Program-made: the position numbers and the translations under genes
The notes under the pieces: model-generated
Seen by the model: only the letters and a program-made list of their open reading frames with translations
Databases searched by the model: none
What the model was told of the DNA's origin: nothing
From: Macrostomum hystrix
Lineage: Eukaryota > Animalia > Platyhelminthes
Direction: 5' to 3'
NCBI GenBank assembly: GCA_950097015.1
Contig: CATNEN010000039.1
Coordinates: 11,470,001-11,534,000, forward strand
Length of the DNA: 64,000 nt
Shown here: one piece after another, positions 27,961 to 63,593 of the stretch
Layout of the letters: each line of letters begins with the position of its first letter
Position numbering within the stretch: position 1 is the first letter of the stretch

Positions 27961-28737
27961 TCTTACTCATTAAGTATCAACAGATTTACAGCATCTCTTT
28001 GAATTTAGCACTGCACCGCAGATTTTTTTAGTTCACTGCAGTACAGAGAACTACACAGCAGAACTACAATGCAGGTTACTAACAGATCAAGGAATTTTCA
28101 CGAGGTCAGAAATTCATAAAGCAGTATTATATCGTTACCTTGCGTAAATTGGTGATAGGTATATTTGAAATAAACATATGGATGGATTGAAAAATCATAA
28201 GCTCGCGTTTTTTTGTAAAAATGGTTCATAAACAAAAAATGGACTAAGCTCTGCAATGCGTTATGATAAACAGTATCACTCACTACTTGAACCAGTTCGA
28301 CATCGACGAAATCAGTTTTTGCTGATTTTTGTATTCGAACTTGTGCTCGTTTTATTTATGTTTGCAAAATATAACAAATTGAAGCTAAAAATAACATAAT
28401 AATAAGTACCAAAATTATAAAATTTTACTGTGCTTTAATGCAGAAATATGATAAATATTGTAAAAGTGGCAATTTTCAACGCCTTAAATACCATTTTACT
28501 TTTTACATTAGCTCCCTTGAAGTTGGCACCCTTCTCTCGTCAACTTCTTCTTCTCTTCTTCTTCTCAATCTCACCCACTAATTCAATACACCCGTTACAT
28601 GGATTGTGACGCACATTTGGCTTTATTGAATGTGACACGGGTGCATCGTACCATACATTCGACAAAACAGCATATTTCGCAGCCGCAGGAAGTCCGTATA
28701 GTTACGTACAAATTTTAAGGGTTTAAATTTTAAGGGC

Positions 28738-29155
28738 TGTTTCGTTCTAACATCGCGATATAACATGCAAAAGGACGCATTTGAATCGGTCTATAACATG
28801 TTAGATGTTGCGTGCAAAATATTCTTATTCCAATAAATAATAAAATAAATGACAAGAAATAGGCCTAATATTTAAATATACCTAGCGAGCTATATAAATT
28901 GTTAATATTACCTATAGCTAAGCCTAGCTAAACTAGCCTAGCTAGCTAGTAGACATTTTTCTTATTGCTACACTGCTAGTAAGGGGCTTTCCATTAGGAT
29001 TACTTCAAGGTTAAAGTAGGCATTAACGCAACATCTAACATGTTATAAACCGATGTACATGCCAAATTTTAGCATTTAACGCAACTTCTAACATGTTATA
29101 CACCAATGTACATGCCCACTTTATGCATGTTATAATCCGAAGTTAGAACGAAACA
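28738..29155. mobile_element. MITE with long imperfect TIRs
   Basis: TGTTTCGTTCTAAC..TATAACATGCA at the left end and TGCATGTTATA..GTTAGAACGAAACA at the right end; internal inverted TATAACATGTTAGATGTTGCGT / ACGCAACATCTAACATGTTATA. TSD not clear. Confidence 0.65.
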
Positions 29156-30554: not shown

Positions 30555-41533
<10,979 letters not shown>

Positions 41534-41547
41534 GGCACCTGAGTTAG

Positions 41548-42307
41548 CACGCGATCCACAGAGAGAGAGCTGAGATCAGACTGGGAGAGGGCCGGCCACG
41601 CAACAGAACACTGGCAAGCGCGGGAGACAACGCGCAGCAGAAAATAGAGAAGTGCCCTCAGTCACGGAAGCCGCAGTGCGGAGGGGGCAGATAGTCTCCG
41701 ATGCGACCTTTTCTGCACACAACAAGGTGCCCCCACGCGAACAAAACAAGACAGATGGGGACAAGCGCACACAGGCAGGCCCCGACAGCCGGACTACAGG
41801 GTCTCGGCGTCGAGCTAGGCGCACGCGAGCAGGCAAGGCTGAGCGGCCGACTCGGGCTTCGTTTCGTCTCGTTTCGTGACACACTGGCCGGAGTTACCAA
41901 GGCTCCTATAGGCAATTTATCCCTCCACTCTAGTTTCGTGCCGAGAGACCGCCTCAGATATAGGGGCAGAGGGATAGGAGGGAGGAGAAAGCCAGGCTGA
42001 AATATCCCCTTTTTCCCCTCACTCTTTAGGGGCAGCTTTCCCATTATTAGGCCTCGGCAGAATTCGCGTGACAACAGCGACCGACTGCGACGGCGAGCTA
42101 TTTCAAAAGCCACACCCACCCTCCGCTGACTCTCCTCTCCGATCCCTCGCCAGATTCTAAATCCCCACCCTCAGTGTTTGCCCCGCCGAGGCCGCCGCCG
42201 AGGGAGGAGAGCCACCCCCACCCTCCGCTCAATCCGCCTCGACCAATCGGGGCGGGGCCGCGCGCCGTTTCGAAGCAAAAATTGTCAATTGCGGAGGACT
42301 CACGCCA
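41548..42307 (-). promoter_or_regulatory. AhR upstream region with five XRE consensus sites, a CCAAT box and a GC box
   Basis: TNGCGTG at 41548, 41734, 41822, 42064 and 42301; CCAATCGGGGCGGGG at 42243-42257. Confidence 0.5.
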
Positions 42308-42489
42308 TGACTTTTCAGACAGGGATTTTTAGCCCACACATTTAGGCCATTCTATTGCTACCTTATTCAAAGTACTTTTATTCCTTCATTTATTGTTCTC
42401 AATCCAGATTTTTTACTAATTTTAAGAAAATTGCCTAATCGTTTCTCGATTCCCTTTCCATAAGATTCAAATCTCACCGCTCCCAAATC

Positions 42490-43640
42490 TCTCATCTCCC
42501 TCCTCCACTTTCTCCCCTCTCTACATTCTCCCCACTCCCATCTTCCTACTCTCCTATCCACTCTCTACTTTTCCCTCCAAACTCTCTACTTCCCCCTCTC
42601 TACTCTCCCCTCTCTTCTCTCCCTCTCTCCTCTCCCCTCTCTCCTCTCTACTTTCCCCCTCTCGTTTTTACTTTCCCCTCTCTCCTCTCTACTTTCCCCC
42701 TCTCTCCTCTCTACTTTCCCCTTTCTCCTCTCTACTTCCCCTCTCTCTTCTCTCCTCTACCCTCTCTCCTTTTTACTTTCCCCTCTCTCCTCTCCCTCTC
42801 TCCTGTCCTCTCTCTTCTCTCCCCTCTCTCCTCTCTACTTTCCCCTCTCTCCTCTCTCCTTGTTACTTTCCCCTCTCTCCTCTCTCCTTGTTACTTTCCC
42901 CTCTCTCCTCTCTCCACTCCCTCTCTCCTGTCCCCTCTCTTCTCTCCCCTCTCTAATCTCTCCTCTCTAATCTCCCCTCTCTCCTCTCTCCTCTCTACTT
43001 TCCCCTCTCTCCTCTCTACTTTCCCCTCTCTCCTCTCTACTTTCCCCTCTCTCCTCTCTACTTTCCCCTCTCTCCTCTCTACTTCCCCTCTCTCCTCTCT
43101 CCTGTCCCCTCTCTTCTCTCCTCTCCCCTCTCTACTCTCTCCTCTCTAATCTCCCCTCTCTCCTCTCTACTTTCCCCTCTCTCCTCTCTACTTTCCCCTC
43201 TCTACTTTCCCCTCTCTCCTCTCTACTTTCCCCTCTCTCCTCTCTACTTCCCCTCTCTCCTCTCTACTTTCCCCTCTCTCAGAGCTCCTCTCTACTTTCC
43301 CCTCTCTCAGAGCTCCTCTCTACTTCTCCTCTCTCCTCTCTCCTCTACCCTCTCTCCTTTTTACTTTCCCCTCTCTCCTCTCCCTCTCTCCTGTCCTCTC
43401 TCTTCTCTCCTCTCTACTTTCCCCTTTCTACTCTCTACTTCCCCTCTCTACTCTCTCCTCTCTACTTTTCCCTCTCTCAGAGCTCCTCTCTACTTTCCCC
43501 TCTCTCAGAGCTCCTCTCTACTTTCCGCTCTCTCCTCTCTACTTTCCCCTCTCTCCTCTTCCCCTTTTGCCTCTCTACTCTTAACTTTACCATCTCTCCT
43601 CTTCCCCTCTCCTCTCCTCTCCCCACTCCCCACTCTCCCA
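42490..43640 (+). repeat. 1.1-kb polypyrimidine low-complexity tract (CTCTCTCCTCTCTACTTTCCC-like)
   Basis: Upstream of AhR. Confidence 0.92.
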
Positions 43641-44580
43641 GGCTTACCTTGTATCTACCCGATTCCGACTCACTGTAAATCTCCACCGTTACCTCGCCCA
43701 CAAAGCTATTTTCCAAATGCGCCAAGAAACACAATATTGATGCGAAAACAGCATTTTATAGGCACTTTAATTTTTTTGGAAACATATAAAATTGTGGCAT
43801 CAAGAAATCTATTTAGTAGCGCAATCTAATCACCGACTCGACGTCCTATATTTTTCAGTTTCTGTGTTCTTCTAAACTAATAAAAAAATATAAAAAATCT
43901 AACTTAGCAAAATTTGAAGTCCAATATGCAGTTTAATAAATGTAGACAAAAACTAAAATCACTTGCGCCTTGCGAACTAAACTACTTAAATAGCAATCGC
44001 CTCAGTAGTAAAATTGCATTTTGTTACACTTGTACAAAAAAGCACTGTAAGCATAGCTAGTTTAATTGTAAAAGGCAACTCGAAAAAAAGAAATCGTTTA
44101 TCAAAATTTAACTGAAAAATAGATAGCACAATACACAAAAATACTTGAAGAATGCCAATCTGAAAGCTAGCGAATTAAAAACTGAAAAATAACAAAAAGC
44201 TAATAATACGCACTTTTTCAAATACTAGAGAGCTACGACTATTTTTTTCCACAGTAAATCAGAGAAACATATTCTCAAGTTCAGAGGTGACTACAAATTT
44301 GACAAATTTATAAAAAAATTATTTGCAGGCACAAAAATACGACGTAAGATCAAAACGGCACAACTGCACAACTAACAACAGCACCAGATTCATATACGCG
44401 AGTGTGTGAAACACGAACAAGGCGCCTGCCAACAGCGAATGTACTATTAAAATTTAAAGACCACAGAATTTTAATCTAGCTATCAGATTTTTAACAGCTT
44501 TCTTTGCTTCGGAATAATTTTACAATCAGGATCTACAACACAAGAATCATAAAAACCGATTTCTATACCTGACTAACTTG

Positions 44581-46457
44581 CTAATCCAGCTCGGATTCTT
44601 CAGTCTCTTCAACAACGGCCTGCCAGCCGCCCCTTAGCAGCACCCATTGAGCGTAGCGTCGATCAAAATGACGCAAACAATGCGCTTTCACTTGCTCCCG
44701 TTTCTCCACTTGTCCGTCGCAGCGTTGACAAAGCAGACGCGTCACTAGATACAGCATAGCAACGCAGCGCCATGCTTGAAGATCGTCTAGCAATAGCTTA
44801 GTAAGCTGGCGACTGAACTCATCGTAGTCAGACAGGCAGGATAGTAGAGAATCCAATGTGGCGTCGTCAACTGGCGCCTTGCCTGCAAGTTAACCAAGTC
44901 GGGGTGGGTGCGAAGGAAGAGTCCACGGCTGAACAGTTGTACACAGGCATTACACTGAACAGTTACCTCTATTACCTCGACCTTCTTTAAAAGAAGTACC
45001 ATTCCACGACTCTAATTTCTATTTAATCTATTCGATTCGATAAAAAAGCAAATCGTACCTTCGCTGCCTTTGCCGCGAAGAACCCGACTCTCCTTCGCCT
45101 CGAGAGCGGACTCCAGGCAGAAGGACACGGACTCTTGTCGGCTGCTGCCGCCGACGCCGCCACCAAAAAAGTCCTTAGCAACAAAGTCTAGCATGGCGGC
45201 TACATGGTCTAATCGGTCTTCAATATCGCTATCCGCGGTGGCCAGTGGCATCACCGTCGCCGTATTGTCGCCATGCTGCAGACACGCTCGACCGAATTCG
45301 CTAACTATGCGAGCTTTCCTCAACGGAATCTGGCGCCTCTGCTGCTGCTGCTGTTGCAGCTTCTGGGTCGTAACTAAACGTCTACGTTCCGACGGCGAGG
45401 GCGAATGAGACGGCGACGGTGTCACGTTAAAAGCGCGTTGCATTAGTAGCCGAGACTCGCGATCGCCTTTGACAGCGCCTCGATGCTGGCGAGATCCGTT
45501 GTCGATAGCGGAGACGGCGTCCGAGTTGAATAGGATGTCCGTGTGGGCGCGCTGACGTCGAAAGTCGAACGTGACGTCGCCTTCTGCAGCAGCTTCGCCG
45601 TCTGCGCGATCCTTCGCAGACTGCTGCGCCGAGTCGCTAGTCGACGCAGTTCTCTCGCCTCGCCTTTGTCGCCGACGATTTCGTTGCCCTCGAAGCCGAT
45701 CGTCATTTTCGGCGTTGGCCTCGACAAAACAATCGTCGTCAACATCGCCATCCACTGCGTCGGTGAATTCCAAATTAGCTGGCGCAGAATACGGCAGCCT
45801 GCCGCAGGGATCCGAGTACGCCACCGGTCGGCCAACTTTGGGCGGAGTAGTGCCGCCGAGGCGCCTAACAGATGCTACTTCGCCGTCGAAATCGCTATCA
45901 TCGTCGTCGCCTTGAACTTGAAGTAATCTGTTTGTGGTGGCAAATAGTGCATTGTTTGTGCATGCATTAGCACGTGATCATAGGGACTGCATGCCTGTTT
46001 ACTTGTACTTATGACTAATTTTCTATGTTTAACTAAAGTTAAACTCACAATCTGTTAAGTAATATTATTTACTCTCTACGTTTAATACTACTTGCAGTAG
46101 AAATTATTTATAATATGCCCAACGGTAATAACAATGCCAATGTCTTGACGTCCTCCGAAGGAGGAGTTCCGCCGGGATTGAGAAACATGCAGTGTGGGAA
46201 AACCTGAAGGACGCGCACCTGGCAAGTCTCGGCCTCTCGCTAATAGCTGACAAATTTTCAGCCAGATTGACACTCCAACTGCGGGTGAGGAAAATTTCCA
46301 GTAGTGCCCGAGCCTCGTTGGTGACAGAGTCCGCAGTGGCCAGAGATGGCTGGAGCGACTGGGAGCGACGCAGTGAAGGTCCAGACGATGAACCCTGCGA
46401 CAGGCTGTCATCACCTGTGTCGCCACCAATGGCGGCGAGTGGTTCGCCACGTTCAGC
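44581..46457 (-). CDS. Bcl-2-family protein lacking a C-terminal TM anchor; 5' end not found
   Basis: Exons (-) 46457-46219, 45927-45059, 44882-44581, phase-consistent. BH4-like VTNEARALLEIFLTRSW, BH3-like VAAMLDFVAKDF, BH1-like QAWRCVAMLY, BH2 AQWVLLRGGW. The start-codon exon lies further upstream and was not identified. Confidence 0.7.
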
Positions 46458-46706
46458 CTAAAAACAGTGAGACAATAAAATTATTTATTTTGGCATGTCA
46501 AAAATAAATACCATAATACACATATTAGAGTCTAGCTTTTCAGATTTCGATTTCAGATTTAGATTTCAGATTTAGATGCAAATCTAATTGTGATAAATGT
46601 AAAACAATAAGAAACATAAAGAAAGCTAACATATTGTTTAAAAAGAAGCTTTTTACAAGCAGCTTTGCTTTTAAATATAGTGTATCTACAGTATATTTAA
46701 TATATC

Positions 46707-46975
46707 AGGGTTCAATTCCCAACTCTGCAGAAACAATTTGTGTCCTCAAGCAGTATACTTAACTCTGCATTGCTTCAGTTCACCGAGTTGTTAAATAGGT
46801 ACCCGAATTAGCAGGGGTATTTGAGAGTGGGTGAGTCATCTTTTAGCCTATGGACTAAACAGCAGCACTCAACCTTCAGATGCAACAGACAATAGCTACA
46901 GCTATGCTGCCAGCAGCACATATGGCCCAATTAGGGCAGGTGTAATCAATTATTATTATTATTATTATTATTACA
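46707..46975 (+). mobile_element. SINE family B copy (B-box remnant, CORE-like domain, GGGCAGGTGTAATCAA + (ATT)n tail)
   Basis: TGTGTCCTC..ACTTAACTC..TGCTTCAGTTCACC..GTTAAATAGGTACC resembles the CORE-SINE domain. The tail is shared with the fragment at 24240-24320. Confidence 0.65.
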
Positions 46976-48076
46976 TTAAGATATATCATTGAATTTGTTA
47001 GCTTGACACAAATTTTATCTATCCTTGTTATTAAAAGGATGGGCTAATTTTATATAAATAGCATTGGAATATATTTGGGTCAAGCTGAACAATACAGTAG
47101 TTATTAATATTTTTCTCATAGTTATGACATTTTTGGTTTGTTTTTATGTCAAACCAACTCAAACCAGCACAACACACTTGTTTTGTTATCAAAACAAAAT
47201 ATAATGACTATACATAGTATAAAAACAGACAAGTCACTAGCATAACATCATTCCTACTAGGCTTAAGATAATCAATAGTTTGTGCACTAGATACAACAGG
47301 ACCTTGTTGGCTTGGAACAATGGTGACACCACTGTATAGTATGGGTTAGGTGTTTATAATATATCTCACAAAAATGACATCAAGCCAAGAGCAAGATTTG
47401 TAATTGAATATAGTAAATCAAGTTGTCAACCAACAACCAAAATAAAAACCTAGAGCAAGTATATAAAGAGAAATATTAAATATTTAGTCCATATTATGAT
47501 AAAAAAGCAAAGACAAAAAAACATACAAAATTACTAAGTATCAATGCTCAACTCATAATTTAATGAACAGATACTCAAGTGTCAATATTTAGCTAGGCAG
47601 AAAAGGGTGTGATACATGAAATATAAATGTATTGGGTCAGAGGTTATGATATAAAGGGGCTTGATTTAAAGGGAGCATTACACTCAATAGGCAGAGGCAA
47701 GGGTACTCAATTTTCAATTTATATAATTACATAATTATGCTATTGCATTAGTTCCATAAGTAGCTAGTACTTCAGTAGTAGAGCCAATGTGAATTAGGAC
47801 TAGGACTATCTTAAAGTTCAAAATATTTTTTTCAGAAGATTTTATGTTCAGAAGATTATATGTACTTATGTACTTAAAACTATATATAGTATAGCAGATA
47901 ACAAAGTGGTAGATTACAAAGTTCTTTGATGACAAAGTCTCAATTAAGGAATCTCACATGGTTCTCTAGGCTTTCAAGTTTGACTGATGAAATTCAAGTG
48001 TTGGGAGTCATTAATCTATGGTTAATCTAAGTTACATGAGTAATAGGCATTAGCAAGTCAAACACAGGCTAGGCAT

Positions 48077-48825
48077 CGTTGAGATATAAACAATGTTACA
48101 ATGTTTCAGAAATGGGTTAGAAAACATATATAAAAAACTAATGAAATAAAAACAAAATATTTCTAGCAATTATATAATGGAGTCAACATACAATCGACGA
48201 TAAAAATCTACTATGCTATTCACAATATAACATGAAAAAATATGTAAGTCCTACAGCATACTGAAAAACAAAAGAAAATTGTTACTTAAAAACACTGAAA
48301 TGCACGAACGTCTTAGTTTTGTCTTTTAAGTTTCATGGAAAACAAAAGTTTTGGTTTTCGTGCTTTCTTTGAAGAATAGCAAATGTATTCATTATATTAT
48401 ATTTAATTGCTTAATAAATTAATTATTTTTTAATTGTATATTTTTTCCTAATAAAGAAGAAATAACTATTTTATTGCTAAAATATTTGTTTCACCTACAT
48501 TGATCTGACTCATTATTTTTAACTATTGCTTTTCTGAGAAAGCATTCTTTGTTGACCGCTCTTTAGCGGTTCGTTGTGCTAATAGTAATTTGGTTGCTGC
48601 TGTTTTCATGCAGTCAAGTTAAGATGTTCTGAAATCATAAAAAATAGCGACTCAGACATAACTAGGTTAATAAGATGCTTTGCCCTTAAGTTTAGTACAT
48701 TAGCTTTTAGCATTACTTATTCGTTATTTGTTATTAGTACATTGTCACTAGTTGTTTAATTTTCACATATTCACAAGAGTACTAGGCCTAAAGTATTTCA
48801 TCGCATAAGTGAAACTAGTTAATCG
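48077..48825. promoter_or_regulatory. Putative bidirectional promoter between the Bcl-2-like gene (-) and SEC31 (+)
   Basis: Divergent gene pair; about 13 CpGs retained here, flanked by CpG-free zones; inverted repeat ACCGCT-CTTT-AGCGGT near 48555-48570. Confidence 0.5.
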
Positions 48826-49059
48826 TGTAAGCAAAAAAAACTATGCTGCATATTTTCTTCTTAAAAGAGGTACAAGTTAGAAACTGAAACTAATTTGAAA
48901 TTCTTTTTTATGCTTTATGTAGATGATACATGCCATTAAATAACTTTATAGTTATATTTTTTTCTATGCAGATTACTAAACCATAATTTATTATTATTCT
49001 GTTTTTAATTTAGTATAGTTCTATTTAAGACAATTGCTAATATTTATAATAGTTGCAGT

Positions 49060-49378
49060 TGTGCTGTAGGTAATGGTACATCATTTGGTGAAACTAGACT
49101 TGTAGCCAGCAAGGAGGCAATTATTTTCACTGACTCCTAAGCATGAGCACACATATGACATGTGTACATGCTTTAGTATCATACATAGGCACACACACAT
49201 GGTGTGTACATCTGCCTTGAGTTTCTCATTTTCAGGCAGTGCACTATGCTTAGGTTAGCTCTCAATAGTATAAATTGTATGACAAGCCCCAAGCCTTCTA
49301 TCCATAGCTATAGCCCAAATAATGTGGCCTCACTGTAGGATCTGTTGAGAGGCAAACCTGTTAGACTGCTCTGCCATC
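49060..49378 (-). mobile_element. Decayed SINE family A copy with all CpGs lost
   Basis: GGTACATCATTTGGTGAAACTAGACTTGTAGCCAGCAAGGAGGC matches GGTACATCATTTGGTGACACTAGACTCGCAGCCAGCGAGGAGGC at 32522. Confidence 0.75.
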
Positions 49379-49566
49379 TTTAAGACAATATCTAACTTCT
49401 TTTATTGGTAAAATTATTATTATTATATATTATTACTAGGCATTCTGATAAAGTGATAGGTTAGGGTTGGATCATTGCCCTAAAAGCTTAAGTTCATTTT
49501 TGTCTAATAGTTCATTATTACATTTATCAATAATTTCAAATAAATTTCTTATTCCAGACTAGTGGA

Positions 49567-52500
49567 ATGCAGTTGAGGCACACAAAATATTCCTGTTTGG
49601 CTGCTTGGTCTCCAGCTTCATTTGTTTCCAGTCATTTTGTTAAAAATATCAAGCATAGATTACTGTTGGCCACTGCTAGTATTGTTGACAATGCAATTGC
49701 TTCAAATGATGGGTGAGTAAATTTAAAACTAGCTTCTATCTGCACTTGTGGCCTAGTAGTTAGTGTCAGACTGATGATTTGATGGTTGGGGTTCGATTCC
49801 CGACTCTACTGGAACAAATTTCATCCTTTAGGAAGACACTCGGTGTTGCTTCAGTTCACCCAGCTGTTAAAATGGGTACAAGCATTAGCTGGGTTAATTG
49901 GGGTGGGTGTGGCTTCCCTCCAGTGCATGGACGTTTATATTGTATTTTTATGTAAGAGCCAGCTAACCACCCTAGTTGCACCTGCCATTGCGCAGGCCGA
50001 AGTCCTTCATACAGCTTGTGTCCTGCAATTTGTCTGCTGATCGACCGAACACCGACCAGCTGTTGCCGATTGGTCGAAAATTATCAGCTCCAAGTGGTCA
50101 GGAAGTTAGCCAGCTGGCTTGGACTAGCAGCGGTGGCAGTAGCCGTGACGGCGGCCTAATAGTTTGTGGCTCAGCTGATGGCACAGTGGCATTGTGCCAG
50201 ATAAATGATTGGATCCAATTTGATAATGGCGATCTAGAGTATAATTCTAAGCCTCTCGAGTTGTTATGGCAACGCGGTGACAATTCCCGTATCGAATCCG
50301 GTGGTCCTATTGTCAGCTTGGATGCCAACAAGCTGCAGTCCGAGTTGCTAGGCAGTTCAGACGCGAGCGGATCAATATCAGTCTGGGATTCTAATAGAAT
50401 GGAGGTGAGTTTCCGGGACTAATAAGATGACGAGGCATCTCAATGTTTTCCCATTCTCCCACTCTTCTATCGCATATTAAACAGAGTGGACCAACTGTCT
50501 CCGCTGTGGCGGCTCCGCTCGACTGTCGGATTTCCTGGAATCCACAGACAGCCCACGTGTTCGCCGCGGTCGGCTCCGCGCCCGTCGGCGTCAACGGCGG
50601 CCTGACCATCTTCGACATTCGCCGATGCTCGGCTAGCAATAAAAATCACCTGGCGCCGCTGATGTGCCTGACGCCGGCGCATTGCGGGGCCGAACGGCTG
50701 ACCCTCATGGAGTGGCATCCGAGGTGAGTTTCCTCTCCAATCTTTACCGTGATTCTCCCAAGCGGATTCGAACTCAGGACCTTCCCTTACGTCACCTTGC
50801 AGCTTGGCAACCCAGCTTTGCCTGGCCTCCGGCGATGATGTCCGCTCCGTAGTGCAGCTGTGGGATCTGCGCTTTGCCGCTTCGCCTGTGTCGCAGTTTA
50901 ATCAGCATTCTGGCTCATCGCTACTGTCTATGGCATGGAATAGTTTCGACACCGGCTGCCTGCTGACCTCGGACAGCTCGGCCCGGCTGCTGTGCTGGGA
51001 TCCCAGGCCAACCAGCTGCAGCTTTGCCGCGGCACACTCTCCAGATTCCGAAAGTGTCGCCCAGCTAGCTAGGGCTAGACTCATCGGCCGTTGCTTCACC
51101 AATTTAGCCTGGTGCCCAGCTGAGCCCGCGTTATTTAGCGCGATAACAACCGACGGACAGGTCAGTCCAAGTGACGAACTGCTTGCTGCTCTTGCTTGGG
51201 GAATTATCGCTTTGTCTGTAGACTGTAGTTCTGTTCTGTAGACTGTAGTTCTGTTCTGTAGACTGTAGTTCTGTTCTGTAGACTGTAGTTCTGTTCTGTA
51301 GACTGTAGTTCTGTTCTGTAGACTGTAGTTCTGTTCTGTAGACTGTAGTTCTGTTCTGTAGACTGTAGTTCTGTTCTGTAGACTGTAGTTCTGTTCTGTA
51401 GACTGTAGTTCTGTTCTGTAGACTGTAGTTCTGTTCTGTAGACTGTAGTTCTGTTCTGTAGACTGTAGTTCTGTTCTGTAGACTGTAGTTCTGTTCTGTA
51501 GACTGTAGTTCTGTTCTGTAGACTGTAGTTCTGTTCTGTAGACTGTAGTTCTGTTCTGTAGACTGTAGTTCTGTTCTGTAGACTGTAGTTCTGTTCTGTA
51601 GACTGTAGTTCTGTTCTGTAGACTGTAGTTCTGTTCTGTAGACTGTAGTTCTGTTCTGTAGACTGTAGTTCTGTTCTGTAGACTGTAGTTCTGTCTGTAA
51701 ATTTTACTTAGATATGCACTCATACAAAGTCGACCGCCAGCATTGACATTTAGCATTTTAATTCTCATCATTGCATTGTAAATACCTATGTGCCATAAGA
51801 CTTGAGTAAATTATGAGCCTGTTCAGTTGATTATGAATTATTAATTAATTATTACTAGGCACAAAGGCTTTAGTGGCAACGTTGCTATTATCCTATTACA
51901 GTTTTTTTCTCATTGAAGATAAGCATTAATTAATTAGCATCACCTGAATTATGATTGATTGGCCTTTTATAAAGGCCATATATTGTGCAAGTGAAATATT
52001 TATTATTGAATCAATGTGCATTCGCTCAAACCCAAATGGAGTGCAAAGAATTAAGTGTATTTTTTTCTCCCTAAAATTTCAGCTACTTCAATCATTAGAA
52101 AAAGGATATGATTATATTTGTATAGGGAGAAATGCATAGATTTGTGACACTGAAATACTGTGCTAGTGTGGGGGGTGAGTTTGCAATCCCCAGCTTAAAA
52201 ACTTTAAGCCATAGACTAAACGCCCATAAGTAAACTTTTGCCCGCTAGACAACAAAATAAATGAGAAATATCACATTTACTAAAATGCATGCACTCGGGA
52301 CCTCTCTGCTCATTGTCTATGGTAAAAAACGGTGTCAAAGAGGCAAGCATTTGAATCCTTTGAGGGATTTCAAGCGCGCATTTAAACACTAGGAACTATA
52401 CCATACTACACCATACTACACTATATACAATTGATTTTCACCCTAAAGAAGAAACACAGAATTAAAAAAGTTTCTTGTCATTTGGTCATTTTTCTCAGTG

Positions 52501-55500
52501 ATTCCCATCATGGATTTGGTCTTTTTGGTCATTTCAATCACTAATCCTTCAGTTATTAAGCAGATTCCTGTCACTAATCCTTCAGTTATTAAGCAGATTC
52601 GTGTCACTAATCCTTCAGTTATTAAGCAGATTCCTATCACTAATCCTTCAGTTATTAAGCAGATTCCTGTTACTAATCCTTCAGTTATTAAGCAGATTCC
52701 TGTTACTAATCCTTCAGTTATTAAGCAGATTCCTGTTACTAATCCTTCAGTTATTAAGCAGATTCGTGTCACTAATCCTTCAGTTATTAAGCAGATTCCT
52801 ATCACTAATCCTTCAGTTATTAAGCAGATTCCTGTCACTAATCCTTCAGTTATTAAGCAGATTCCTGTTACTAATCCTTCAGTTATTAAGCAGATTCCTG
52901 TCACTAATCCTTCAGTTATTAAGCAGATTCCTGTTACTAATCCTTCAGTTATTAAGCAGATTCCTGCCACTAATCCTTCAGTTATTAAGCAGATTCCTGT
53001 CACTAATCCTTCAGTTATTAAGCAGATTCCTGTCACTAATCCTTCAATAGTTTCATAGGATTACGTCTCGTCCCGCCCACGATGCTTCAGTGTTGTACAT
53101 GTTCACCCCTTTGTGGTAACTTCAGCGGTTTGACAGTGTCCCCAATACTCAATTGTTGGAGAAGTGTCAGCTTGGCACAGCTGTGCCACATCTGTTAGCA
53201 ATTCTGCCCTCTGCCTTATCCCACAGGACCCACACTAGGGTGTGAAATTATAGTCAATGATAATCCTAAATGAAGTTTAGTAAACTGAAATCTCTTTGTG
53301 AACATTACCTTCTAAAATTGATATAGCTTTCTTTTACGTCTTGAAAAGTGAACTTTTATTTTCTGAAGTCAGAACATAAGGTCTTAAAATGGCTGCCTCT
53401 ATATGCCATTCACTGTACTTACTTTTGTTTAATAGGCTGAGAAGCAAGATTGTACTTTTTGTATCGCGCACTTAACTCTTTACTTTGGGTTAGAATTTTT
53501 TTCTTGTCTTTCTCTGTGTCTCCCAATCCCCAAAAGACCCTTGTCTCCTAGCTATATAGCTTTAGCTTAAAATACAATTGATTGAAATCTTTCATACCAT
53601 ACCGCATATAGTTTGCGAACTTTACATAAGTTAAGTCAGTGGGACATAAGCGGGGGTTGTTGGGTAAGCGTTATCAGGGTCTTCTAAGAATCATTGATAA
53701 AAATGAATCCATTTCTAAGAATTCTGGGTGGCGTGAATTGGGTTGATTATAAGGGGTTAGTTAAAAAAGAATCATTGTCTATGACAACTAGTTTCTAGGA
53801 ATCGCGAGAAAGGAGAGTCAGTTTCTAGGTAAAATGGATAATAGAAATGGATTTATAAGAATCATTTAAAATGTTAAACGTTAAATGTTAAATCATTAAT
53901 ACTGGTTGTCGATTTCTAGGAATCATAGATTATGAGAGTCGGTTTCTAAGAATCATTGACAATCACAGCTAGTTTCTAGGAATCATAGCTACTGAGAGTC
54001 AGTTTTTAAGAATAATTGACAATTGCAGCTAGTTTCTAGGAATCATAGGTAATGAGAGTCAGTTTCTAAGAATCATTGACAATCACAGCTAGTTTCTAGG
54101 AATCATAGGTAATGAGAGTCAGTTTCTAAGAATCATTGACAATCACAGCTAGTTTCTAGGAATCATAGCTAATGAGAGTCAGTTTCTAAGAATCATTGAC
54201 AATTACACCTAGTTTCTAGGAATCATAGGTAATGAGAGTCTGTTTCTAAGAATCATTGACAATTGCAGCTAGTTTTTAGGAATCATAGGTTATGAGAGTC
54301 GGTTTCTAAGAATCATTGACAATTGCAGCTAGTTTCTAGGAATCATATATTAAGAATCCGTTTCTAAGAATCATTGACAATTACAGCTAGTTTCTAGGAA
54401 TCATAGGTAATGAGAGTCAGTTTCTAAGAATCATTGACAATTACACCTAGTTTCTAGGAATCATAGGTAATGAGAGTCAGTTTCTAAGAATCATTGACAA
54501 TTACACCTAGTTTCTAGGAATCATAGGTAATGAGAGTCTGTTTCTAAGAATCATTGACAATTGCAGCTAGTTTCTAGGAATCATAGCTAATGAGAGTCAG
54601 TTTCTAAGAATCATTGACAATTGCAGCTAGTTTCTAGGAATCATATATTAAGAATCCGTTTCTAAGAATCATTGACAATTACAGCTAGTTTCTAGGAATC
54701 ATAGGTAATGAGAGTCAGTTTCTAAGAATCATTGACAATCACAGCTAGTTTCTAGGAATCATAGCTAATGAGAGTCAGTTTCTAAGAATCATTGACAATT
54801 ACACCTAGTTTCTAGGAATCATAGGTAATGAGAGTCTGTTTCTAAGAATCATTGACAATTGCAGCTAGTTTTTAGGAATCATAGGTTATGAGAGTCGGTT
54901 TCTAAGAATCATTGACAATTGCAGCTAGTTTCTAGGAATCATATATTAAGAATCCGTTTCTAAGAATCATTGACAATTACAGCTAGTTTCTAGGAATCAT
55001 AGGTAATGAGAGTCGGTTTCTAAGAATCATTGACAATTGCAGCTAGTTTCTAGGAATCATATATTTTGAGAATCCGTTTCTAAGAATCATTGATATTTGT
55101 AGCGAGCTAAGGAATGAGTTTATGAATTGAAGAAATTAAGTAATAGTTTATAAGAATCACTGGTTACTCAGTTTATAATTTTTCTCATTCTAATCGCAGG
55201 TGCATTCTAGCACTCTGTGGAAGACCAAGTTGCTATAAACTTAAAGGCTATTAAAATACGAACTGATTATAATTTTTGCGCAACATGCTTTAAATTTAAT
55301 TATTGCCAACAACGTGCGTCAAATAACTCCGTAAAGTAATTTTTTGCAAAATCTGCAGCTCGGCATTTTTAACATCCTTGGCGGCGGTTGCGGCTTCGAT
55401 AATGACGACAATGACGGCTTTAGTAATCACAATGAACCAACCGGTCTAGAATTTGAAAGCCAGGACACAGCCAGCTTAGAAACTTGGCATCAAAAGCGCC

Positions 55501-58500
55501 GACTGCGCACCCTGTCGAAAGTGTCGATGCAGCAACCGGCCGATGATCCATTCGCCGAGGTTCACCAGCCTTCTGGCCCAATTCGGGTTTGGTACAATGC
55601 CAATCGGGCATTCAACTGGCTAGCTGGAGCTGGCTGCGGTGTTAGATTCGGATTTGGCGGTCGTCTGGTCAATTTCAGCAGCGACAGGCGGGTGTTCATC
55701 GGCCAGATGGACAGTCAGACTGTGGCAGCGGTGGATGAACTGCCAGCTATGGTTGCCAGGCGGGCTAGAGAGTTTGAAAATGCCCTAGCAGAAGGTGGTG
55801 ACGACCTTGGAGGCTATTGCGGGTGAGCCACGTCTTTGATTATGTTATTGTTATTTATTTTGCTCTGCAACTCGCCTCATGCGTCATCTCTACCTCTGTG
55901 TAGTCCGTCTCCCTGACCTTCAGGTCCGCCTTCCTGTCCTTCAGCACCGCCTCCCTGTCCTTCAGGTTCGCCTCCCTCAGTCCTTCAGGTTCGCCTTCCT
56001 TAAACTTCGCATTCGCATTCGCATTCGCAGGTCCCGTGCTTCAGAATCGGGCATTCCAGACAGTGAAATTCAAATTTGGCGCTTTCTCGAAGCGAATTTC
56101 AACTCCAATCCGAGTTTAGACTTTATTAAACTGCTCGGCTATGGCCAAGACAACGGCGATGATGCGCCTGATAGCGACCGGCTGATTGCCGCTCTTGTGT
56201 CGGGCCGTTTAGATGCTGCCATCGAGCAGTTCCTCGCCGAGGGCCGTCTGCTGGAAGCCCTCCTATTAGCGGGCAGCTGTATTGATGATTCCAGCTCAAA
56301 TCGGATATACAGTGGGACTCGAACTCGCGTCCTAGACCAACTCAGACTGGACACTGGCAGCTCGACCTCGGAGATTAGTCGGCTCGTTGAAGCGATCGTC
56401 ATTCGAGACATCTCCGGCTACGTCAACAGCAACAGCAACAACAACGAGAACAGCGTCGCAGTGGACGATGGTCTTCGCTGGCGACGCCAACTAGCGTTTG
56501 TCCTGGCCTACTCGGACGTGGAGAGTTTGCCCGCCTTCGCCGAGTTCATCGGGCGTCGTCTGGAACGCGTAGGCAGCTCAGCAGCCTCGGCCGCGGCTGC
56601 GATCTGTTACGCCTGCTCCGGCTCCTGGCGTCGGCTTGCTGTCTGTCTAGCAGCAGAAGCTAGCGGCAGTTCGATAACCGCCCTGCAGCTAGCCGTGCAG
56701 GCTGGCGAAGTGCTTCAACGAGCTGTCGGCGGTCTACTAGACGATGATTGCGCAAATGTTGACGATGCAATTACCGACGCTGCTGTTGAGCTGTACGCCG
56801 GCGCTTTGGCCAATTGGGGCCAGCTTCTACCAGCCCTGAACTGCTGCATTCGCCGACTCAGACCGTCTAGACGTCCAGACGGCTTCGACTACTTTGGCGA
56901 TAGTCGCCTAGCCGTGCTGGCCTACAGGCTGTGGCGAGCCCTCGGACATGACGGCCCAGCTAGCATCGGGGTCTGGATGGCCGATCCATTCGCCGAGCGG
57001 ACCGCGGCCACTGCTGATTTAATGGTGAATCTTTATTCTATAGTCTTTGTTGCTTGTGTCCACTGTATATTGTGCATTTAGGATGCAAACCTTTCTTGAA
57101 TAAATTTCAGAACTCGGCAGCCAGGAAGAGAAGAGAAGAACAGAACATTGCTTCAGCCTACCCTGTGCCTCCACAATCTGCCGCAGCCTATCCTGTGCCG
57201 CCTCCACAATCTGCCGCAGCCTATCCAGTGCCGCCTCCACAATCTGCCGCAGCCTATCCTGTGCCGCCTCCACAATCTGCCGCAGCCTATCCAGTGCCGC
57301 CTCCACAATCTGCCGCAGCCTATCCTGTGCCGCCTCCACAATCTGCCGCAGCCTACCCTGTTAAACCACAATCTGCCGCAGCCTATCCTGTGCCGCCTCC
57401 ACAATCTGCCGCAGCCTATCCAGTGCCGCCTCCACAATCTGCCGCAGCCTATCCAGTGCCGCCTCCACAATCTGCCGCAGCCTATCCTGTGCCGCCTCCA
57501 CAATCTGCCGCAGCCTATTCTGTGCCCCCACCACAATCTGCCGCAGCCTACCCTGTGCCGCCACCACAATCTGCCGCAGCCTACCCTGTGCCGCCACCAC
57601 AATCTGCCGCAGCCTATCCTGTGCCGCCTCCACAATCTGCCGCAGCCTATCCTGTGCCGCCTCCACAATCTGCCGCAGCCTATTCTGTGCCCCCACCACA
57701 ATCTGCCGCAGCCTATCCTGTGCCGCCACCACAATCTGCCGCAGCCTACCCTGTGCCGCCACCACAATCTGCCGCAGCCTATCCTGTGCCGCCACCACAA
57801 TCTGCCGCAGCCTACCCTGTGCCGCCACCACAATCTGCCGCAGCCTATCCTGTGCCGCCTCCACAATCTGCCGCAGCCTATCCTGTGCCGCCTCCACAAT
57901 CTGCCGCACCTTATCCTGTGCCGCCTCCACAATCTGCCGCAGCTTATCCTGTGCCGCCTCCACAATCTGCCGCAGCCTATTCTGTGCCCCCACCACAATC
58001 TGCCGCAGCCTACCCTGTGCCGCCACCACAATCTGCCGCAGCCTACCCTGTGCCGCCACCACAATCTGCCGCAGCCTATCCTGTGCCGCCTCCACAATCT
58101 GCCGCAGCCTATCCTGTGCCGCCTCCACAATCTGCCGCACCTTATCCTGTGCCGCCTCCACAATCTGCCGCAGCTTATCCTGTGCCGCCTCCACAATCTG
58201 CCGCAGCCTATCCTGTTCCACCACAATCTGCCTCAGCCTACCCAGTGCTGCCACCACAATCTGCCACTGCACTCTATGAACGCCCATGCTTGCAAAAAAC
58301 TGCGGTATTTAGTCCGTCATTGCCTGGTCAGTTGGCGGTTGCTGCAAGTGCAACAACAGGATCATTCTACAATCCACTCGCTCCCCTGCCAGTGGCAGCC
58401 TCGGCCCACTCCTTCCCCAGTGTGCCTTCAAAGCCGCCGCCGATACTGCGGACGCCTGTGCCCGCCGAGGAACTGTCGCTTTTTCGAGGCGGCAACAAGA

Positions 58501-59360
58501 TCAAATCTGTAATTTATTTGTTTTACTACACTTATGAAAGGTTTCAGACCATTTTTAAACTAGAGGTCTGAAGTTCGAATCCTCATCCTCAGAATAGGCT
58601 AAAATTGAATCTTCAGCAGGCGGAAGACGTGCCTCAACAATTCTACAATCCGAGCGCCTGGTCCGCTTCAATAGCTTCTTCGTCTTCAAATCCTCCTCCG
58701 CCATCGCAATCATCACCGTCAGCGTCAACGATTGGTCGAAGCCAGTCGAATCTAATATCGAACGCTAGCCCAGCCAATCGGGTGGCCGCTGATTTGGCCG
58801 ATCGATTTTCCAAAGCGCTGACCAGCTTGGCCAGAGATTGCCGCGGTCGAGCACAGCAGCTGCTGACTGACTCGTCCAACAGTGCCAACGCTGTTAAATT
58901 GCGTCACATTGTCGTCAAGATGAACGACGCAGAAAAAAAATCTGCTGCTCTCGCCCAACTACTCGGGTCGAGTTCGGTGAGCAAAAAATATTTCGCCTGT
59001 CTCGGACAGACTACTGGCCAGTAGGATGGTTGGAGAGAATATAGAATATAAAAATGCACTCCACGCTTAAGGTCACGAAATCTAATTGGCTGCCGGCTTC
59101 TCTGAGAGGGGGTTTTCCAGTGTGCTAAAAATAAAATTTTATTTCGTTTTTAGTCGCTTTTGTTTTTCTATGATCAGATCTCTTCGCCGGTGCTGGAGGG
59201 CCTGGGTTCGATTCTTGTCAGTCTGGAGCGCGGCAGTCTGACGGAAGCGTTGGCTAACCTGAATTCGGCTGTCCAATCCGGCGGCTTGGAAGAGTTGCGC
59301 AGCCATCTGCCCGGCCTGAAGCTGCTCATCCAGGCGGCTGTTGAGCTGCGCCAGTTTTAG
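49567..59360 (+). CDS. SEC31: COPII outer-coat protein Sec31 (WD40 + ACE1 + Pro-rich region + C-terminal helical domain); 9 exons
   Basis: Exons 49567-49712, 49996-50404, 50485-50723, 50803-51160, 55359-55822, 56031-57024, 57111-58508, 58617 (or 58620)-58976, 59178-59360. Motifs AAWSP, WHP..ATQLCLASGDD..VQLWDLRFAASP, RFGFGGRLVNF, IWRFLEANF, AICYACSG and C-terminal LPGLKLLIQ. Confidence 0.88.
49748..49895 (+). mobile_element. SINE family B copy in Sec31 intron 1
   Basis: A-box TGGCCTAGTAG, B-box GGTTCGATTCC, then TGCTTCAGTTCACCCAGCTGTTAAAATGGGTAC. Confidence 0.7.
51216..51696 (+). repeat. Homogeneous 20-bp array (GACTGTAGTTCTGTTCTGTA)n
   Basis: Sec31 intron 4. Confidence 0.97.
52537..53046 (+). 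repeat. 33-bp array (ACTAATCCTTCAGTTATTAAGCAGATTCCTGTC)n
   Basis: Sec31 intron 4. Confidence 0.97.
53900..55095 (+). repeat. ~60-bp (2 x 30) array with TTTCTAAGAATCAT / TTTCTAGGAATCAT subunits
   Basis: Sec31 intron 4; a variant unit recurs every 298 bp. Confidence 0.95.
57150..58265 (+). repeat. 33-bp coding repeat (YPVPPPQSAAA, about 33 copies) forming the Sec31 proline-rich region
   Basis: In frame within exon 57111-58508. Confidence 0.92.
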
Positions 59361-59519
59361 CTCAATTTCTGGCTAACCTAACTGGATTCTAACTTTATGC
59401 TCAGCGTTTGTGCTTGTGATTTTCAACTTCTGTTATTGATCAAGTTTTTCATTTTCAGTTTTACAATCTGACTTTACAACACAAATCTGACTTTACTAAC
59501 GTAGTTCTTAAAATGGTAA

Positions 59520-60261
59520 ATGTACATCCACCCCAATTTAATCATTCTAGGAATGTACATCCACCCCAATCTAATAATTCTAGGATTGTACATCAACCCT
59601 AATCAATGTACATCCACCCCAATACAATCATTCTAGGAATCTACATCCACCCCAATTTAATCATTCTAGGAATGTACATCAACCCCAATTTAATCATTCT
59701 AGGAATGTACATCCACCACAATCTAATCATTCTAGGAATGTACATCCACCCCAATCAGATTATTCTAGGAATGTACATCCACCTTAATCTAATCATTCTA
59801 GGAATGTACATCCACCCCAATCTAATCATTCTAGGAATGTACATCCATCCCAATCTAATCATTCTAGGAATATACATCCATCCCAATCTAATCATTCTAG
59901 GAATGTACATCCACCCCAATTTAATCATTCTAGGAATGTACATCCACCCCAATCTAATAATTCTAGGAATGTACATCAACCCTAATCTAATCATTCTAGG
60001 AATGTACATCCACCCCAATACAATCATTCTAGGAATGTACATCCACCCCAATCTAATCATTCTAGGAATGTACATCCACCCCAATCTAATAATTCTAGGA
60101 ATGTACATCCACCCCAATCTAATAATTCTAGGAATGTACATCAACCCTAATCTAATCATTCTAGGAATGTACATCCACCCCAATCTAATCATTCTAGGAA
60201 TGTACATCCATCCCAATCTAATCATTCTAGGAATGTACATCCACCCCAATTTAATCATTCT
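59520..60261 (+). repeat. 33-bp array (CTAGGAATGTACATCCACCCCAATCTAATCATT)n
   Basis: Between SEC31 and PI4KB. Confidence 0.97.
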
Positions 60262-60719
60262 AAATATATTTCAAGACTACTTTTTCATCTGTATTATTAA
60301 TTTAGCTGATTAAAACTTTCTTCTTTTTATATTTTAAAGTCTTTTTTGCTCAATTACTTTGCAGAATATTTTTGTCTGCTTTACAAAGCAGTTTTTATTT
60401 TTTGCTTCAGTACTTTTCAGATTTTTTTAAAGGTCTACCATTGCTCAGTGATAATTATCTGTCTGATTTAATTCGATCAATTTTTTACAAAATGCTTTCG
60501 TTAATTTTTTATATTGATTTTAACTATTTAAACGATTTTTTGCAATATTTGTTATCTTTTTTACAATAATTTGGTGCAAGCGTTTAAACTAACGACAAGT
60601 TTTTTACATAGTTTTGACATACCGTTAAACTCTTCGACTCTTCAATCAGTCCTTTTATTTAGAACAAATTTTAATCTAGCTGCAGCAGCTGATTTCTATG
60701 TCCACTGACTAACAACAAC

Positions 60720-61420
60720 AATCCACAATGTCCACTCTCCCACAATATACAAACCACAATGTCCACTCTCTCCCACAAAGAAAAATCCACAATGTCCACT
60801 CTCTCCCACAATAAAAAATCCACAATGTCCACTCTCTCCCACAATGAAAAATCCACAATGTCCACTCTCTCCCACAATGAAAAATCCACAATGTCCACTC
60901 TCTCCCACAATGAAAAATCCACAATGTCCACTCTTTCCCACAATAAAAAATCCACAATGTCCACTCTCTCCCACAATAAAAAGTCCACAATGTCCACTCT
61001 CCCACAAAAAAAATCCACAATGTCCACTCTCTCCCACAATAAAAAATCCACAATGTCCACTCTCTCCCACAATAAAAAATCCACAATGTCCGCTCTCTCC
61101 CAAAATAAAAAATCCACAATGTCCACTCTCTCCCACAATAAAAAATCCACAATGTCCACTCTCTCCCACCAGAAAGAATCCACAATGTCCGCTCTCTCAC
61201 ACCAGAAACAATCCACAATGTCCGCTCCCTCACACCAGAAACAATCCACAATGTCCGCTCTCTCACACCAGAAACAATCCACAATGTCCACTCTCTCACA
61301 CCAGAAACAATCCACAATGTCCACTCTCTCACACCAGAAACAATCCACAATGTCCACTCTCTCACACCAGAAGCAAGTTACAATGTCCAGTCTCCCACCA
61401 TAAACAATCCACAATGTCCA
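60720..61420 (+). repeat. 33-bp array (TCCACAATGTCCACTCTCTCCCACAATAAAAAA)n
   Basis: Immediately upstream of the PI4KB acceptor site. Confidence 0.95.
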
Positions 61421-61518
61421 CACGCAGCAAATTTATTTTTAAATCTAAATTTTTTCCAGGCTTCGTAGGAGGTCGGTTGGAGGGCAGCGGAGTGAAAAGA
61501 AAAGAACAGAACAAACCC

Positions 61519-63593
61519 ATGGCGGAAGCGCAATGCGTGTCGGCTGTTCAACAGTCGCAGCCGCCGCCTGACGCCAGCCTGCTTCGACTACTGGCTTCTG
61601 ACGTGCTGGACATTCACCTGGCTATGCACTGGCTTTATTATGCAAAAAGCGACGATGTGCGACGATTAATTGTTGCCAGGCTGGCCGAATTCGATCCGGA
61701 ACAGGCAGATTTTTACCTGCCCCAGTTGGTTAATATGTACGCTAATTGCGGCGCGGAATTGTCTTCAGTTTTGAGACCGTATCTTGAGCAGAGGTGCTCA
61801 AAATCTGCCGAATTCAGCTGTCGGCTGGCTTGGCTGTTGGACGCGCACGGCGCTAGGCAGCGTCAGAAGCGGCGTTGTCACGCGCTGCACCTGCGCGATT
61901 GCATCGTTAGCGAACAGCTGACACCGGAGCCTGCGCGAGTTACCGAAGCTGACGGCGATAGGTGCCTTAGTTTGATTTTTTGTACCAAAGCTGGGTTTAG
62001 TTTGAGTGAGGTTGGTTTAGCCGGAATGAGGTGGGTGTAGCTGGAGTGAGGTTGGTGGAATAATAAAATTTATTATTATTTATAATTAATTAGAGGTTGA
62101 TGTAGGTGGTAGGTGTAGGTGGTAGGAGCCGAGTGAGGTGGTGTAGCTGGAGTAAGGTGGGTTTCGCCGGAGTGAGGTGGGTGTAGACAGTGAGGTGGGT
62201 GTAGATAGAGTGAGATTGGTGTAGCCGGAGTGAGGTTGGTGTAGCTGGAGTGAGATTGGTGTGACCGGAGTGAGGTGGGTGTAGCTGGAGTGAGGTGCGT
62301 ATGGCCAGAGTAAGGTGGGTGTAGCCGGAGTGAGGTGGGTGTAGCTGGAGTGAGGTGGGTGTAGCTAGAGTGAGGTGGGTGTAGATAGATTGAGATTGGT
62401 GTAGCCGGAGTGAGGTGGGTGTATATAGAGCGAGATTGGTGTAGCCGGAGTGAGGTGGGTGTAGCTGGAGTGAGGTGGGTGTAGCCGGAGTGAGCTGGGT
62501 GTAGCTGGAGTGAGCTGGGTGTAGCTGGAGTGAGGTGGGTGTAGCCGGAGTGTGGTGGGTGTAGATAGAGTGAGATTGGTGTAGCCGGAGTGAGGTGGGT
62601 GTAGCCGGAGTGAGCTGGGTGTAGCTGGGTGAGCTGGGTGTAGCCGGAGTAAGGTGGGTGAAGCTGGAGTGAGATGGGTGTAGCCGGAGTGAGATTGGTG
62701 TAGATAGAGTGAGATTGGTGTAGCCCGAGTGAGGTGGGTGTAGCCGGAGTGAGGTGGGTGTAGCTGGAGTGAGGTGGGTGTAGATAGAGTGAGATTGGTG
62801 TAGCCGGAATGAGGTGGGTGTAGCCGAAATGCAGGCATTCGTCATGCAGACTTAACTGATTTTATTCAGGCCGCACAGCCACAGCCACCATCAGCAGCAT
62901 CACCAGAGCCATAAGCGCTGCGCCTCGGACGCTCTGCAATTCGACGGCTGGTCTGATCGAATCCGGCGCTGTCGGACGACGGCCGGCAATTTAAATAGCG
63001 GCCGCGCCTTCGCCAGCGGCTGCCAGTGCCAGGCGGCGGCCAATCTCAGCGCCAGCTGCAGCTGCGGCTCCGCCAGGCTGCTGCCCCAGCTGGAGTTCGT
63101 GAAGTCTCTGATGCGCCTAACTAGGCGTCTTCGCCAATATCCGTCAAGGGAGGCGCGCACCAACCATTTGCACGGCGAGTTGGCCCTCCTAAACTTTAAT
63201 TTGCCAGCCAGAGTTTGGCTGCCAGTGGGCCGGGCGGATCATTGCATAGTGAGAATTCCTCACACCGCAGCTGCTGTGCTCAACAGCAAGGACAAGGCGC
63301 CCTATCTGGTGTACGTTGAAACCGTGTCACGCTACGACCCGATGGCGGCGGACATTCCCGTCGGCCGGACATTGCTGCTGCCGAGCAGTTCTGCTACCTG
63401 GCGCAGTCAGGAGGAGCTAATTCAGCAACAGCAACAGCAGCAGCAGCGTCAGCAACAGCAGTCGAATGCTAACAGCGCGGATGTGTGCAGCAGCAGCGGC
63501 TGCTGCTCTGAGGAGCCGATCGCTGTTGACTCAGTTGACGACGGCAGTAGCTGCCTGAGCGGTGAGGACGAACCAGTGCCGGCTGCAGAGAGG
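61519..63593 (+). CDS. PI4KB: Phosphatidylinositol 4-kinase III beta, 5' part (continues beyond the window)
   Basis: Exons 61519-61961 and 62870-63593. Motifs LLRLL..DIHLAMHWLY, DFYLPQLVNMY, HKRCASDA, GNLNSGRAF..GC.C, LNFNLPARVWLP, VRIPHTAAAVLNSKDKAPYLVYVE. Confidence 0.92.
62000..62826 (+). repeat. 20-bp G-rich array (GGAGTGAGGTGGGTGTAGCC)n
   Basis: PI4KB intron 1. Confidence 0.95.

Follow-up and report, generated by a model that had tools for sequence, protein, structure and literature searches.

What could remove every CpG dinucleotide (cytosine followed by guanine) from the DNA on both sides of a short intergenic region and leave those within it in place? The question is raised by two genes that point away from each other, Sec31 on the forward strand and an opposing neighbour, here called the left gene, in 64,000 nucleotides (nt) of the flatworm Macrostomum hystrix (GenBank assembly GCA_950097015.1, contig CATNEN010000039.1, positions 11,470,001 to 11,534,000). 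We refer to this whole stretch as the window and number positions from its first letter. The loss is specific to CpG, proceeds by transition on both strands, is placed alike behind two RNA ends, and is absent deeper in the genes and in two control genes. Judged from the sequence, 5-methylcytosine (5mC) in some form very probably underlies it, and we suggest that a band of germline 5mC anchored behind certain promoters is its likely explanation.

Two CpG-free zones flank a likely divergent promoter

An exact recount gives no CpG in 46806-48076 or in 48826-49793, as the sequence-only reading had claimed. Base composition predicts 31.4 and 26.7, respectively, and AT-matched DNA about 26 and about 22. 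GpC dinucleotides are common in both stretches (43 and 45), and the 749 nt between them (48077-48825) hold the 13 CpGs that had been estimated by eye, at an observed/expected ratio (o/e) of 0.93 and a GC content of 0.27. The two stretches are the longest and third-longest CpG-free gaps in the window, the second-longest being a tandem repeat. As background we used 25 tandem-masked 300-nt tiles of matched GC content (0.327), in which the o/e is 0.81 for CpG and 1.44 for GpC. Against these tiles the Poisson probability of zero CpG is 7e-12 for the left stretch and 3e-10 for the right, or about 3e-9 and 1e-6 after correction for any start among 44,633 unmasked bases.

Though both CpG-free stretches are exact, the left zone is in fact wider than was first described. 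It extends to about 46460 and has three CpGs inside it (46548, 46784 and 46804), two of which differ from the letter in most genome copies of the short interspersed element (SINE) that encloses them. These two, 46784 and 46804, look newly arisen. Past this zone CpG resumes 8 nt inside the first exon of the left gene. On the other side the first coding exon of Sec31 (49558-49712) is wholly without CpG, again as proposed, and the identity of the gene is borne out by a match to Sec31A in PDB (E 6.8e-20). The coordinates are collected in Table 1.

A third zone and the signature of the loss

When 442 masked 500-nt windows are slid along the 64,000 nt, all those with a CpG o/e below 0.25 fall in three zones only, against a whole-window value of 0.75. 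The third zone, at 25475-28016, belongs to an independent gene, ZDHHC5/8. With a miniature inverted-repeat transposable element (MITE) set aside, whose CpGs span 27042-27578, it holds 3 CpGs against 41 expected (P 1e-14). Residual CpGs of the zones are at 25797, 26156, 27848, 46784 and 46804. The ZDHHC zone also contains a local duplication of 87 nt (26034-26120 and 26574-26658, 78% alike), and one of the sequencing runs compared below, X4, has a small contig over 26101-26256. Partial CpG depletion is seen at 1-1520 (masked o/e 0.32, GpC 1.38), where another band may be fading out at the edge of the window. Other long CpG gaps (59500-60474, 42663-43526 and further ones) are largely repeats.

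The pooled zones (4352 unmasked nt, GC 0.328) have 5 CpGs and 181 GpCs, compared with 161 and 285 in the matched background (P 1.7e-22), which corresponds to a CpG o/e of 0.04 versus 0.81. AT content is ruled out as the cause, since GpC is not lowered (o/e 1.55 in the zones versus 1.44 outside), and tandem repeats are ruled out by the masking. The joint surplus of TpG and CpA, 96, is close to the CpG deficit of 90, and the remaining dinucleotides shift far less (CC 1.02, CT 1.12). This depletion with TpG/CpA gain lies within transcribed units, those of the left gene and ZDHHC being covered or bridged by RNA. The earlier description of the zones as a deamination footprint is upheld by this balance and by the SINE copy described below.

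Two explanations without methylation have to be weighed against these numbers. Selection might purge CpG behind promoters, for example as cryptic binding sites, with no rise in mutation rate. The depletion is nearly complete and its position exact, as selection could produce, but the gain of TpG and CpA offsets the deficit, 11 of 14 SINE sites were lost by transition as mutation predicts, and selection acting on each CpG over 1-2 kb of non-coding DNA is demanding. We regard this as the least probable account. Scarcely more probable is a transcription-coupled AID/APOBEC-like deaminase that mutates germline C in the absence of methylation. Such action in immunoglobulin genes covers a similar promoter-proximal span, and the zones resemble that hypermutation window in extent. 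The loss here is CpG-specific, however, with GpC, CC and CT at the values given above.

Repeated elements inside and outside the zones

A tRNA-like SINE family with four copies in the window, one of them inside zone 2, provides a natural experiment. As test sites we took the 16 positions where two or all three outside copies have CpG. The zone-2 copy aligns at 14 of these and has kept none; 11 were lost by transition (6 TG, 4 CA, 1 TA), on both strands. When each outside copy is left out in turn, CpG is kept at 6/8, 6/8 and 6/10 sites, or 18/26 with two gapped sites dropped, and the difference from 0/14 has a P of 2e-5 for this one family of four copies. Within the zone copy, transitions have struck 11/14 CpG sites but only 20/97 non-CpG C/G sites (P 4e-5). 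The latter are evenly spread over CA (7/34), CC (5/25) and CT (4/28), and both strands are affected, which speaks against the deaminase even though the non-CpG rate is raised relative to two of the three other copies.

Copies of a second SINE family lie at the outer edges of zones 1 and 2. In the copy across the edge of zone 2, compared by eye, the four family CpGs before 49794 read TpG or CpA and those at 49794 and 49801 are intact; the copy at 46708 has lost these same two. The CpGs at 46784, 46804 and 49841 are absent from the family letters in contigs of other genome copies, and are thus newly made. A search of metagenome and prokaryote genome collections with a 25-nt SINE motif gave no matching contig.

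These elements bear on the possibility that methylation was directed at transposons, so that the zones are graveyards of silenced elements gathered in first introns and outrons. SINE pieces do occur within zone 2 and at the two outer edges, and the ZDHHC zone has a MITE. Yet three SINE copies of the same family elsewhere keep 18/26 CpGs, so decay depends on place; one copy switches state at the zone edge; and coding exons free of elements are CpG-free as well. We therefore consider transposon targeting improbable. The MITE is young: over 345 nt it departs from family contigs in 3 places, and the CpG to CpA change at one of these is a hint only. Its 8-bp target duplication is hAT-like. Many near-identical copies are present in the RNA-like runs. 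Ongoing methylation in the ZDHHC zone could readily be read from it.

RNA contig ends, coding exons and the position of the zones

Eight sequencing runs were listed with no library record and five were compared. X2, X3 and X5 are taken as RNA because their contigs join across GT-AG introns; X2 and X3 are two runs of one study. Contigs from X2 and X3 cross zone 1 unspliced and both stop at base 48334, inside the island, where the sequence-only reading had expected a transcription start site (TSS); this contig end is likely such a site. At the 5' end of ZDHHC the contigs of X2, X3 and X5 end within three bases of one another, and X4 has no piece listed there. X5 contigs end at AG acceptors before 46457 (record 24) and 49558 (record 25), with 24 unplaced letters each, the stop at 49558 being derived by arithmetic on length and depth.

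The left gene has an open reading frame of 469 codons that opens at its acceptor and has no ATG of its own. In Macrostomum, the spliced leader has ATG as its last three letters (PMC8629364, PMC10468722). Because X5 ends at the acceptors, the left frame has no ATG and the leader ends in one, the left gene and Sec31 are likely trans-spliced, and zones 1 and 2 are likely to be largely outrons. The start codon of the left gene is likely supplied by the leader.

Counted from the RNA-contig ends, the last CpG before the loss is at +257 in the left gene and +284 in ZDHHC. Taking these ends as starts, dense CpG resumes at +1884 and at about +2280 to +2420, respectively. The promoter side is spared in both; ZDHHC +1 to +285 has an o/e of 0.93, the same as the island, with starts defined by contig ends only.

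Codon positions follow the same course. In the first exon of Sec31, NCG stands at 0/15 and third-position C before G at 0/9. In the two in-zone exons together, third-position C is found at 0/14 sites before G versus 12/29 before other bases (P 0.004). For the exons that follow, one in each of the three genes, the figure is 30/79, and for two deeper exon sets it is 82/114. The outer edge is thus graded, since the next exons are partly depleted between zones and depth. Deep exons keep their CpG, as had been stated. Downstream introns have a CpG o/e of 0.70 (ZDHHC intron 2) and of 0.81 and 1.07 (left gene).

The closest rival invokes the same deamination of 5mC and differs only in the target, which would be a feature, the outron or first intron of constitutive genes, instead of a distance from the promoter. 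Zone 1 stops at the first acceptor of the left gene, with CpG back shortly afterwards, the ZDHHC zone stops about 190 nt short of exon 2, and zone lengths track intron or outron lengths to some degree. A feature rule accommodates less well that the zones span whole coding exons (exon 1 of Sec31 and of ZDHHC), that the ZDHHC zone begins inside a 5' untranslated region (UTR) exon and zone 2 ends inside Sec31 intron 1, that the left outron retains CpG over its first 257 nt, and that the next exons are partly depleted (30/79 vs 90/157, P 0.006). We hold this rule to be unlikely, though less so than transposon targeting.

A proposed promoter-anchored methylation band

We suggest the following mechanism for a band set by distance from the promoter. 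Behind the start of certain transcription units that are constitutively active, the Macrostomum germ line would long have methylated the DNA between about +0.26 kb and +1.3-2.3 kb. The 5mC placed by DNMT1/DNMT3 would deaminate to T, and repeated rounds would strip CpG from outron, intron, SINE and synonymous sites alike. The inner edge would be the end of promoter chromatin, with the first nucleosomes excluded; H3K4me3 on first nucleosomes blocks the ADD domain of DNMT3. The outer edge would reflect a fading 5' chromatin mark and not a whole-gene H3K36me3 domain. Two divergent promoters in 48077-48825 would each cast a band outward, giving the symmetry, and with an equal offset Sec31 would start near 48540-48570. 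Such a band would destroy its own substrate and leave few methylated sites, a result that would agree with the low global 5mC reported for Macrostomum lignano. It is an even call whether this amounts to a distinct Macrostomum methylome. Such a methylome would be dense and fixed by distance (about +0.26 to +2 kb), would take no account of whether the DNA is exon, intron or outron, would pass over regulated genes and the downstream members of operons, and would erase itself.

Several points weigh against the promoter-anchored band. The sample is three genes in one window, and the zones were chosen after being seen. Contig ends cannot prove starts: 48334 comes from X2 and X3, both of one study, and the ZDHHC end is a weak hint. 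No X2, X3 or X5 contig covers 48469-48970, so these runs are silent on the Sec31 start. The band lengths differ (about 1.0, 1.6 and 2.0 kb). Confinement is not absolute, since 1-1520, at an o/e of 0.32, has no gene assigned, and the long downstream intron of Sec31 is mildly depleted (0.59, with dips to 0.30). The MITE, within the ZDHHC zone, is still at an o/e of 1.02. The scar may be historic. Non-CpG C/G transitions in the zone SINE exceed those of copies B (10 vs 5) and D (13 vs 3) at the same sites, though not those of copy A (11 vs 12). The zone copy may thus be somewhat older; by these counts age may add to the effect but cannot account for 11/14 versus 20/97.

The sequence-only reading had placed methylation in the first 1-2 kb of each gene of the divergent pair. 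The CpG loss, its signature and the RNA end in the island agree with this, but the zones are likely mostly outron and intron instead of the gene body of a mature mRNA, and the outer limit is a gradient. The pattern recurs at ZDHHC with the same offset; an AHR-like gene and the first exon of PI4KB show none of it. Zones are found at Sec31, ZDHHC5/8 and the left, Bcl-2-like gene.

If our interpretation is true, the zones would be a first positional clue to methylation in free-living flatworms. Most studied flatworms have lost DNMT1/3, and a promoter-proximal band is a possible step between whole-gene-body methylation and its loss. A band placed so sharply yields exact coordinates and suggests a reason for low bulk 5mC. 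The TSSs and operon starts of trans-spliced genes, which are hidden in RNA-seq, could then be read from genome sequence alone. Macrostomum is a regeneration model genus, and the band would mark its hidden gene starts. It would also follow that DNMT targeting uses a 5' chromatin cue other than whole-gene H3K36me3.

Genes and other features of the window

Table 1. Positions, strands and main properties of the features discussed
Feature	Positions	Strand	Remarks
CpG-erased zone 1	46460..48076	-	CpG o/e 0.05 masked; covered by unspliced X2/X3 contig pieces; reaches first acceptor of left gene; likely outron
CpG-retaining island, likely divergent promoter	48077..48825	.	13 CpG, o/e 0.93; left-gene contig end within
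CpG-erased zone 2	48826..49793	+	0 CpG, 45 GpC; likely Sec31 outron, coding exon 1 and start of intron 1
Third CpG-erased zone, ZDHHC5/8	25475..28016	-	Part of 5' UTR, coding exon 1 (ATG 27960), most of intron 1
5' end of left-gene RNA contigs, likely TSS	48334	-	X2 record 15, X3 record 20; 19 and 22 unplaced letters
5' end of ZDHHC RNA contigs, likely TSS	28299..28301	-	X2 and X3 at 28301, X5 at 28299; two studies
tRNA-like SINE copy inside zone 2	49046..49376	-	0/14 family CpGs kept; 11 TpG/CpA/TpA; GpC 8/9 kept
Second SINE family copy, outer part of zone 1	46708..46840	+	CpA at two family CpG sites
Second SINE family copy, across outer edge of zone 2	49756..49916	+	Loose-end contig letters compared by eye
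Young MITE in ZDHHC zone	27034..27587	.	Terminal inverted repeats, 8-bp target duplication, 16 CpG
Sec31 gene	49558..59360 (3' limit approximate)	+	Sec31A E 6.8e-20 (PDB); spliced in X5; CpG-rich from exon 2
Sec31 first exon (ATG 49567)	49558..49712	+	Preceding AG acceptor, likely spliced-leader trans-splice site; CpG-free
Left gene	43700..46457	-	Exons 46457-46219, 45927-45058, 44881 onward; joints in X2, X3, X5; CpG-rich
AHR-like bHLH-PAS gene, 5' part and intron 1 (negative control)	38500..42590	-	Pfam HLH E 1.3e-7; no CpG loss
PI4KB first coding exon (negative control)	61420..62000	+	o/e 1.2; Pfam PI4KB PIK E 9e-22; no CpG loss

A later exon of Sec31 has Sec16/Sec23-binding-like features. 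Exon 1 alone matched no Sec31 chain in PDB, and a homolog search with exon 2 among longer proteins found nothing. The proline-rich region of Sec31 (57167-58265) is an in-frame tandem repeat of a 33-nt unit, about 33 copies long. PI4KB lies on the same strand as Sec31, about 2 kb further on (59360-61420 between them), with a strong acceptor and no CpG-poor band, and the two secretory-pathway genes possibly form an operon.

The Bcl-2 domain at the C-terminus of the left gene product is weak (Pfam E 0.0014, below the cut-off; PDB Bcl-X E 0.55), and a left-gene exon found no homolog among longer proteins. We presume a likeness to Bcl-G. The N-terminal part of the product is long and of low complexity, and a hydrophobic tail is absent. 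The nearest non-fused match of the ZDHHC5/8 DHHC exon is from M. lignano, at 91% over 187 residues. The control at 38500..42590, which we presume to be AHR, has a CpG o/e of 0.89 in the 5' region and 1.03 in intron 1. Just upstream of the ZDHHC promoter is an old imperfect inverted-repeat element (28738-29155, about 60% self-complementary). At 7671-8170, a 14-nt unit in 36 copies at 100% identity has arisen inside a SINE copy and splits it.

Comparison with known methylation systems

M. lignano has low global 5mC and retains DNMT1 and DNMT3, according to reviews (PMC9246332, PMC11292947, PMC10658182) that cite Wasik et al. 2015, and one of them describes the methylation pattern of free-living flatworms as unknown (PMC9246332). 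The sequence-only reading had called the pattern unusual, especially for a flatworm. The genus is reported to keep DNMT1 and DNMT3, and 5'-biased gene-body methylation is already known in insects. Our literature search found no paper describing this pattern in flatworms; it covered subscription literature poorly, and Wasik et al. 2015 may bear on novelty.

A close likeness is to Nasonia and other holometabolous insects, where methylation occupies the first 1-2 kb of a gene subset and leaves a CpG o/e footprint (PMC3794928), with promoters and most transposons spared as they are here. In Planococcus citri and Nicrophorus vespilloides methylation is limited to the first three exons, and its position within genes shifts often (PMC7343188); in ants and bees 5' methylation tracks TSS-proximal histone marks (PMC3622302). 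The 5' confinement of the insect type is present in our genes (about +260 to +1900 in the left gene, +285 to +2300 in ZDHHC), but its exon-high, intron-low profile linked to the start codon is not. In Nasonia methylation is centred on exons, with introns 0.7% and 5' UTR 3% methylated and a rise past the start codon (PMC3794928). The Macrostomum scar, by contrast, covers outrons, introns and 5' UTR, and introns and outrons are its most depleted parts. It is tied to the RNA 5' end, not to the ATG, which in the left gene is about 1.9 kb in, where the coding exons keep CpG. The erasure is also almost total.

Annelids and molluscs (PMC11292947, PMC10658182) would share with this locus a hypomethylated promoter, methylation in transcribed units including introns, and a spiralian DNMT1/DNMT3 toolkit. 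Their methylation is of the whole-gene-body type, whereas here the same genes regain normal or higher CpG in their deeper exons and introns. A full-gene footprint is not found: deep C before G stands at 82/114, and intron o/e at 0.70, 0.81 and 1.07, with 0.59 in the long Sec31 intron. As in vertebrate CpG-island promoters, CpG survives at the promoter between depleted flanks; unlike those, the island is rich in AT (GC 0.27) and its CpG density is ordinary, and the flanks, not the genome, are depleted. The zones would behave as a form of invertebrate gene-body methylation. The 5' confinement is shared with insects and already known; what this locus adds is an inner edge anchored on RNA, tests by SINE copies and by codons, and two genes in divergent arrangement.

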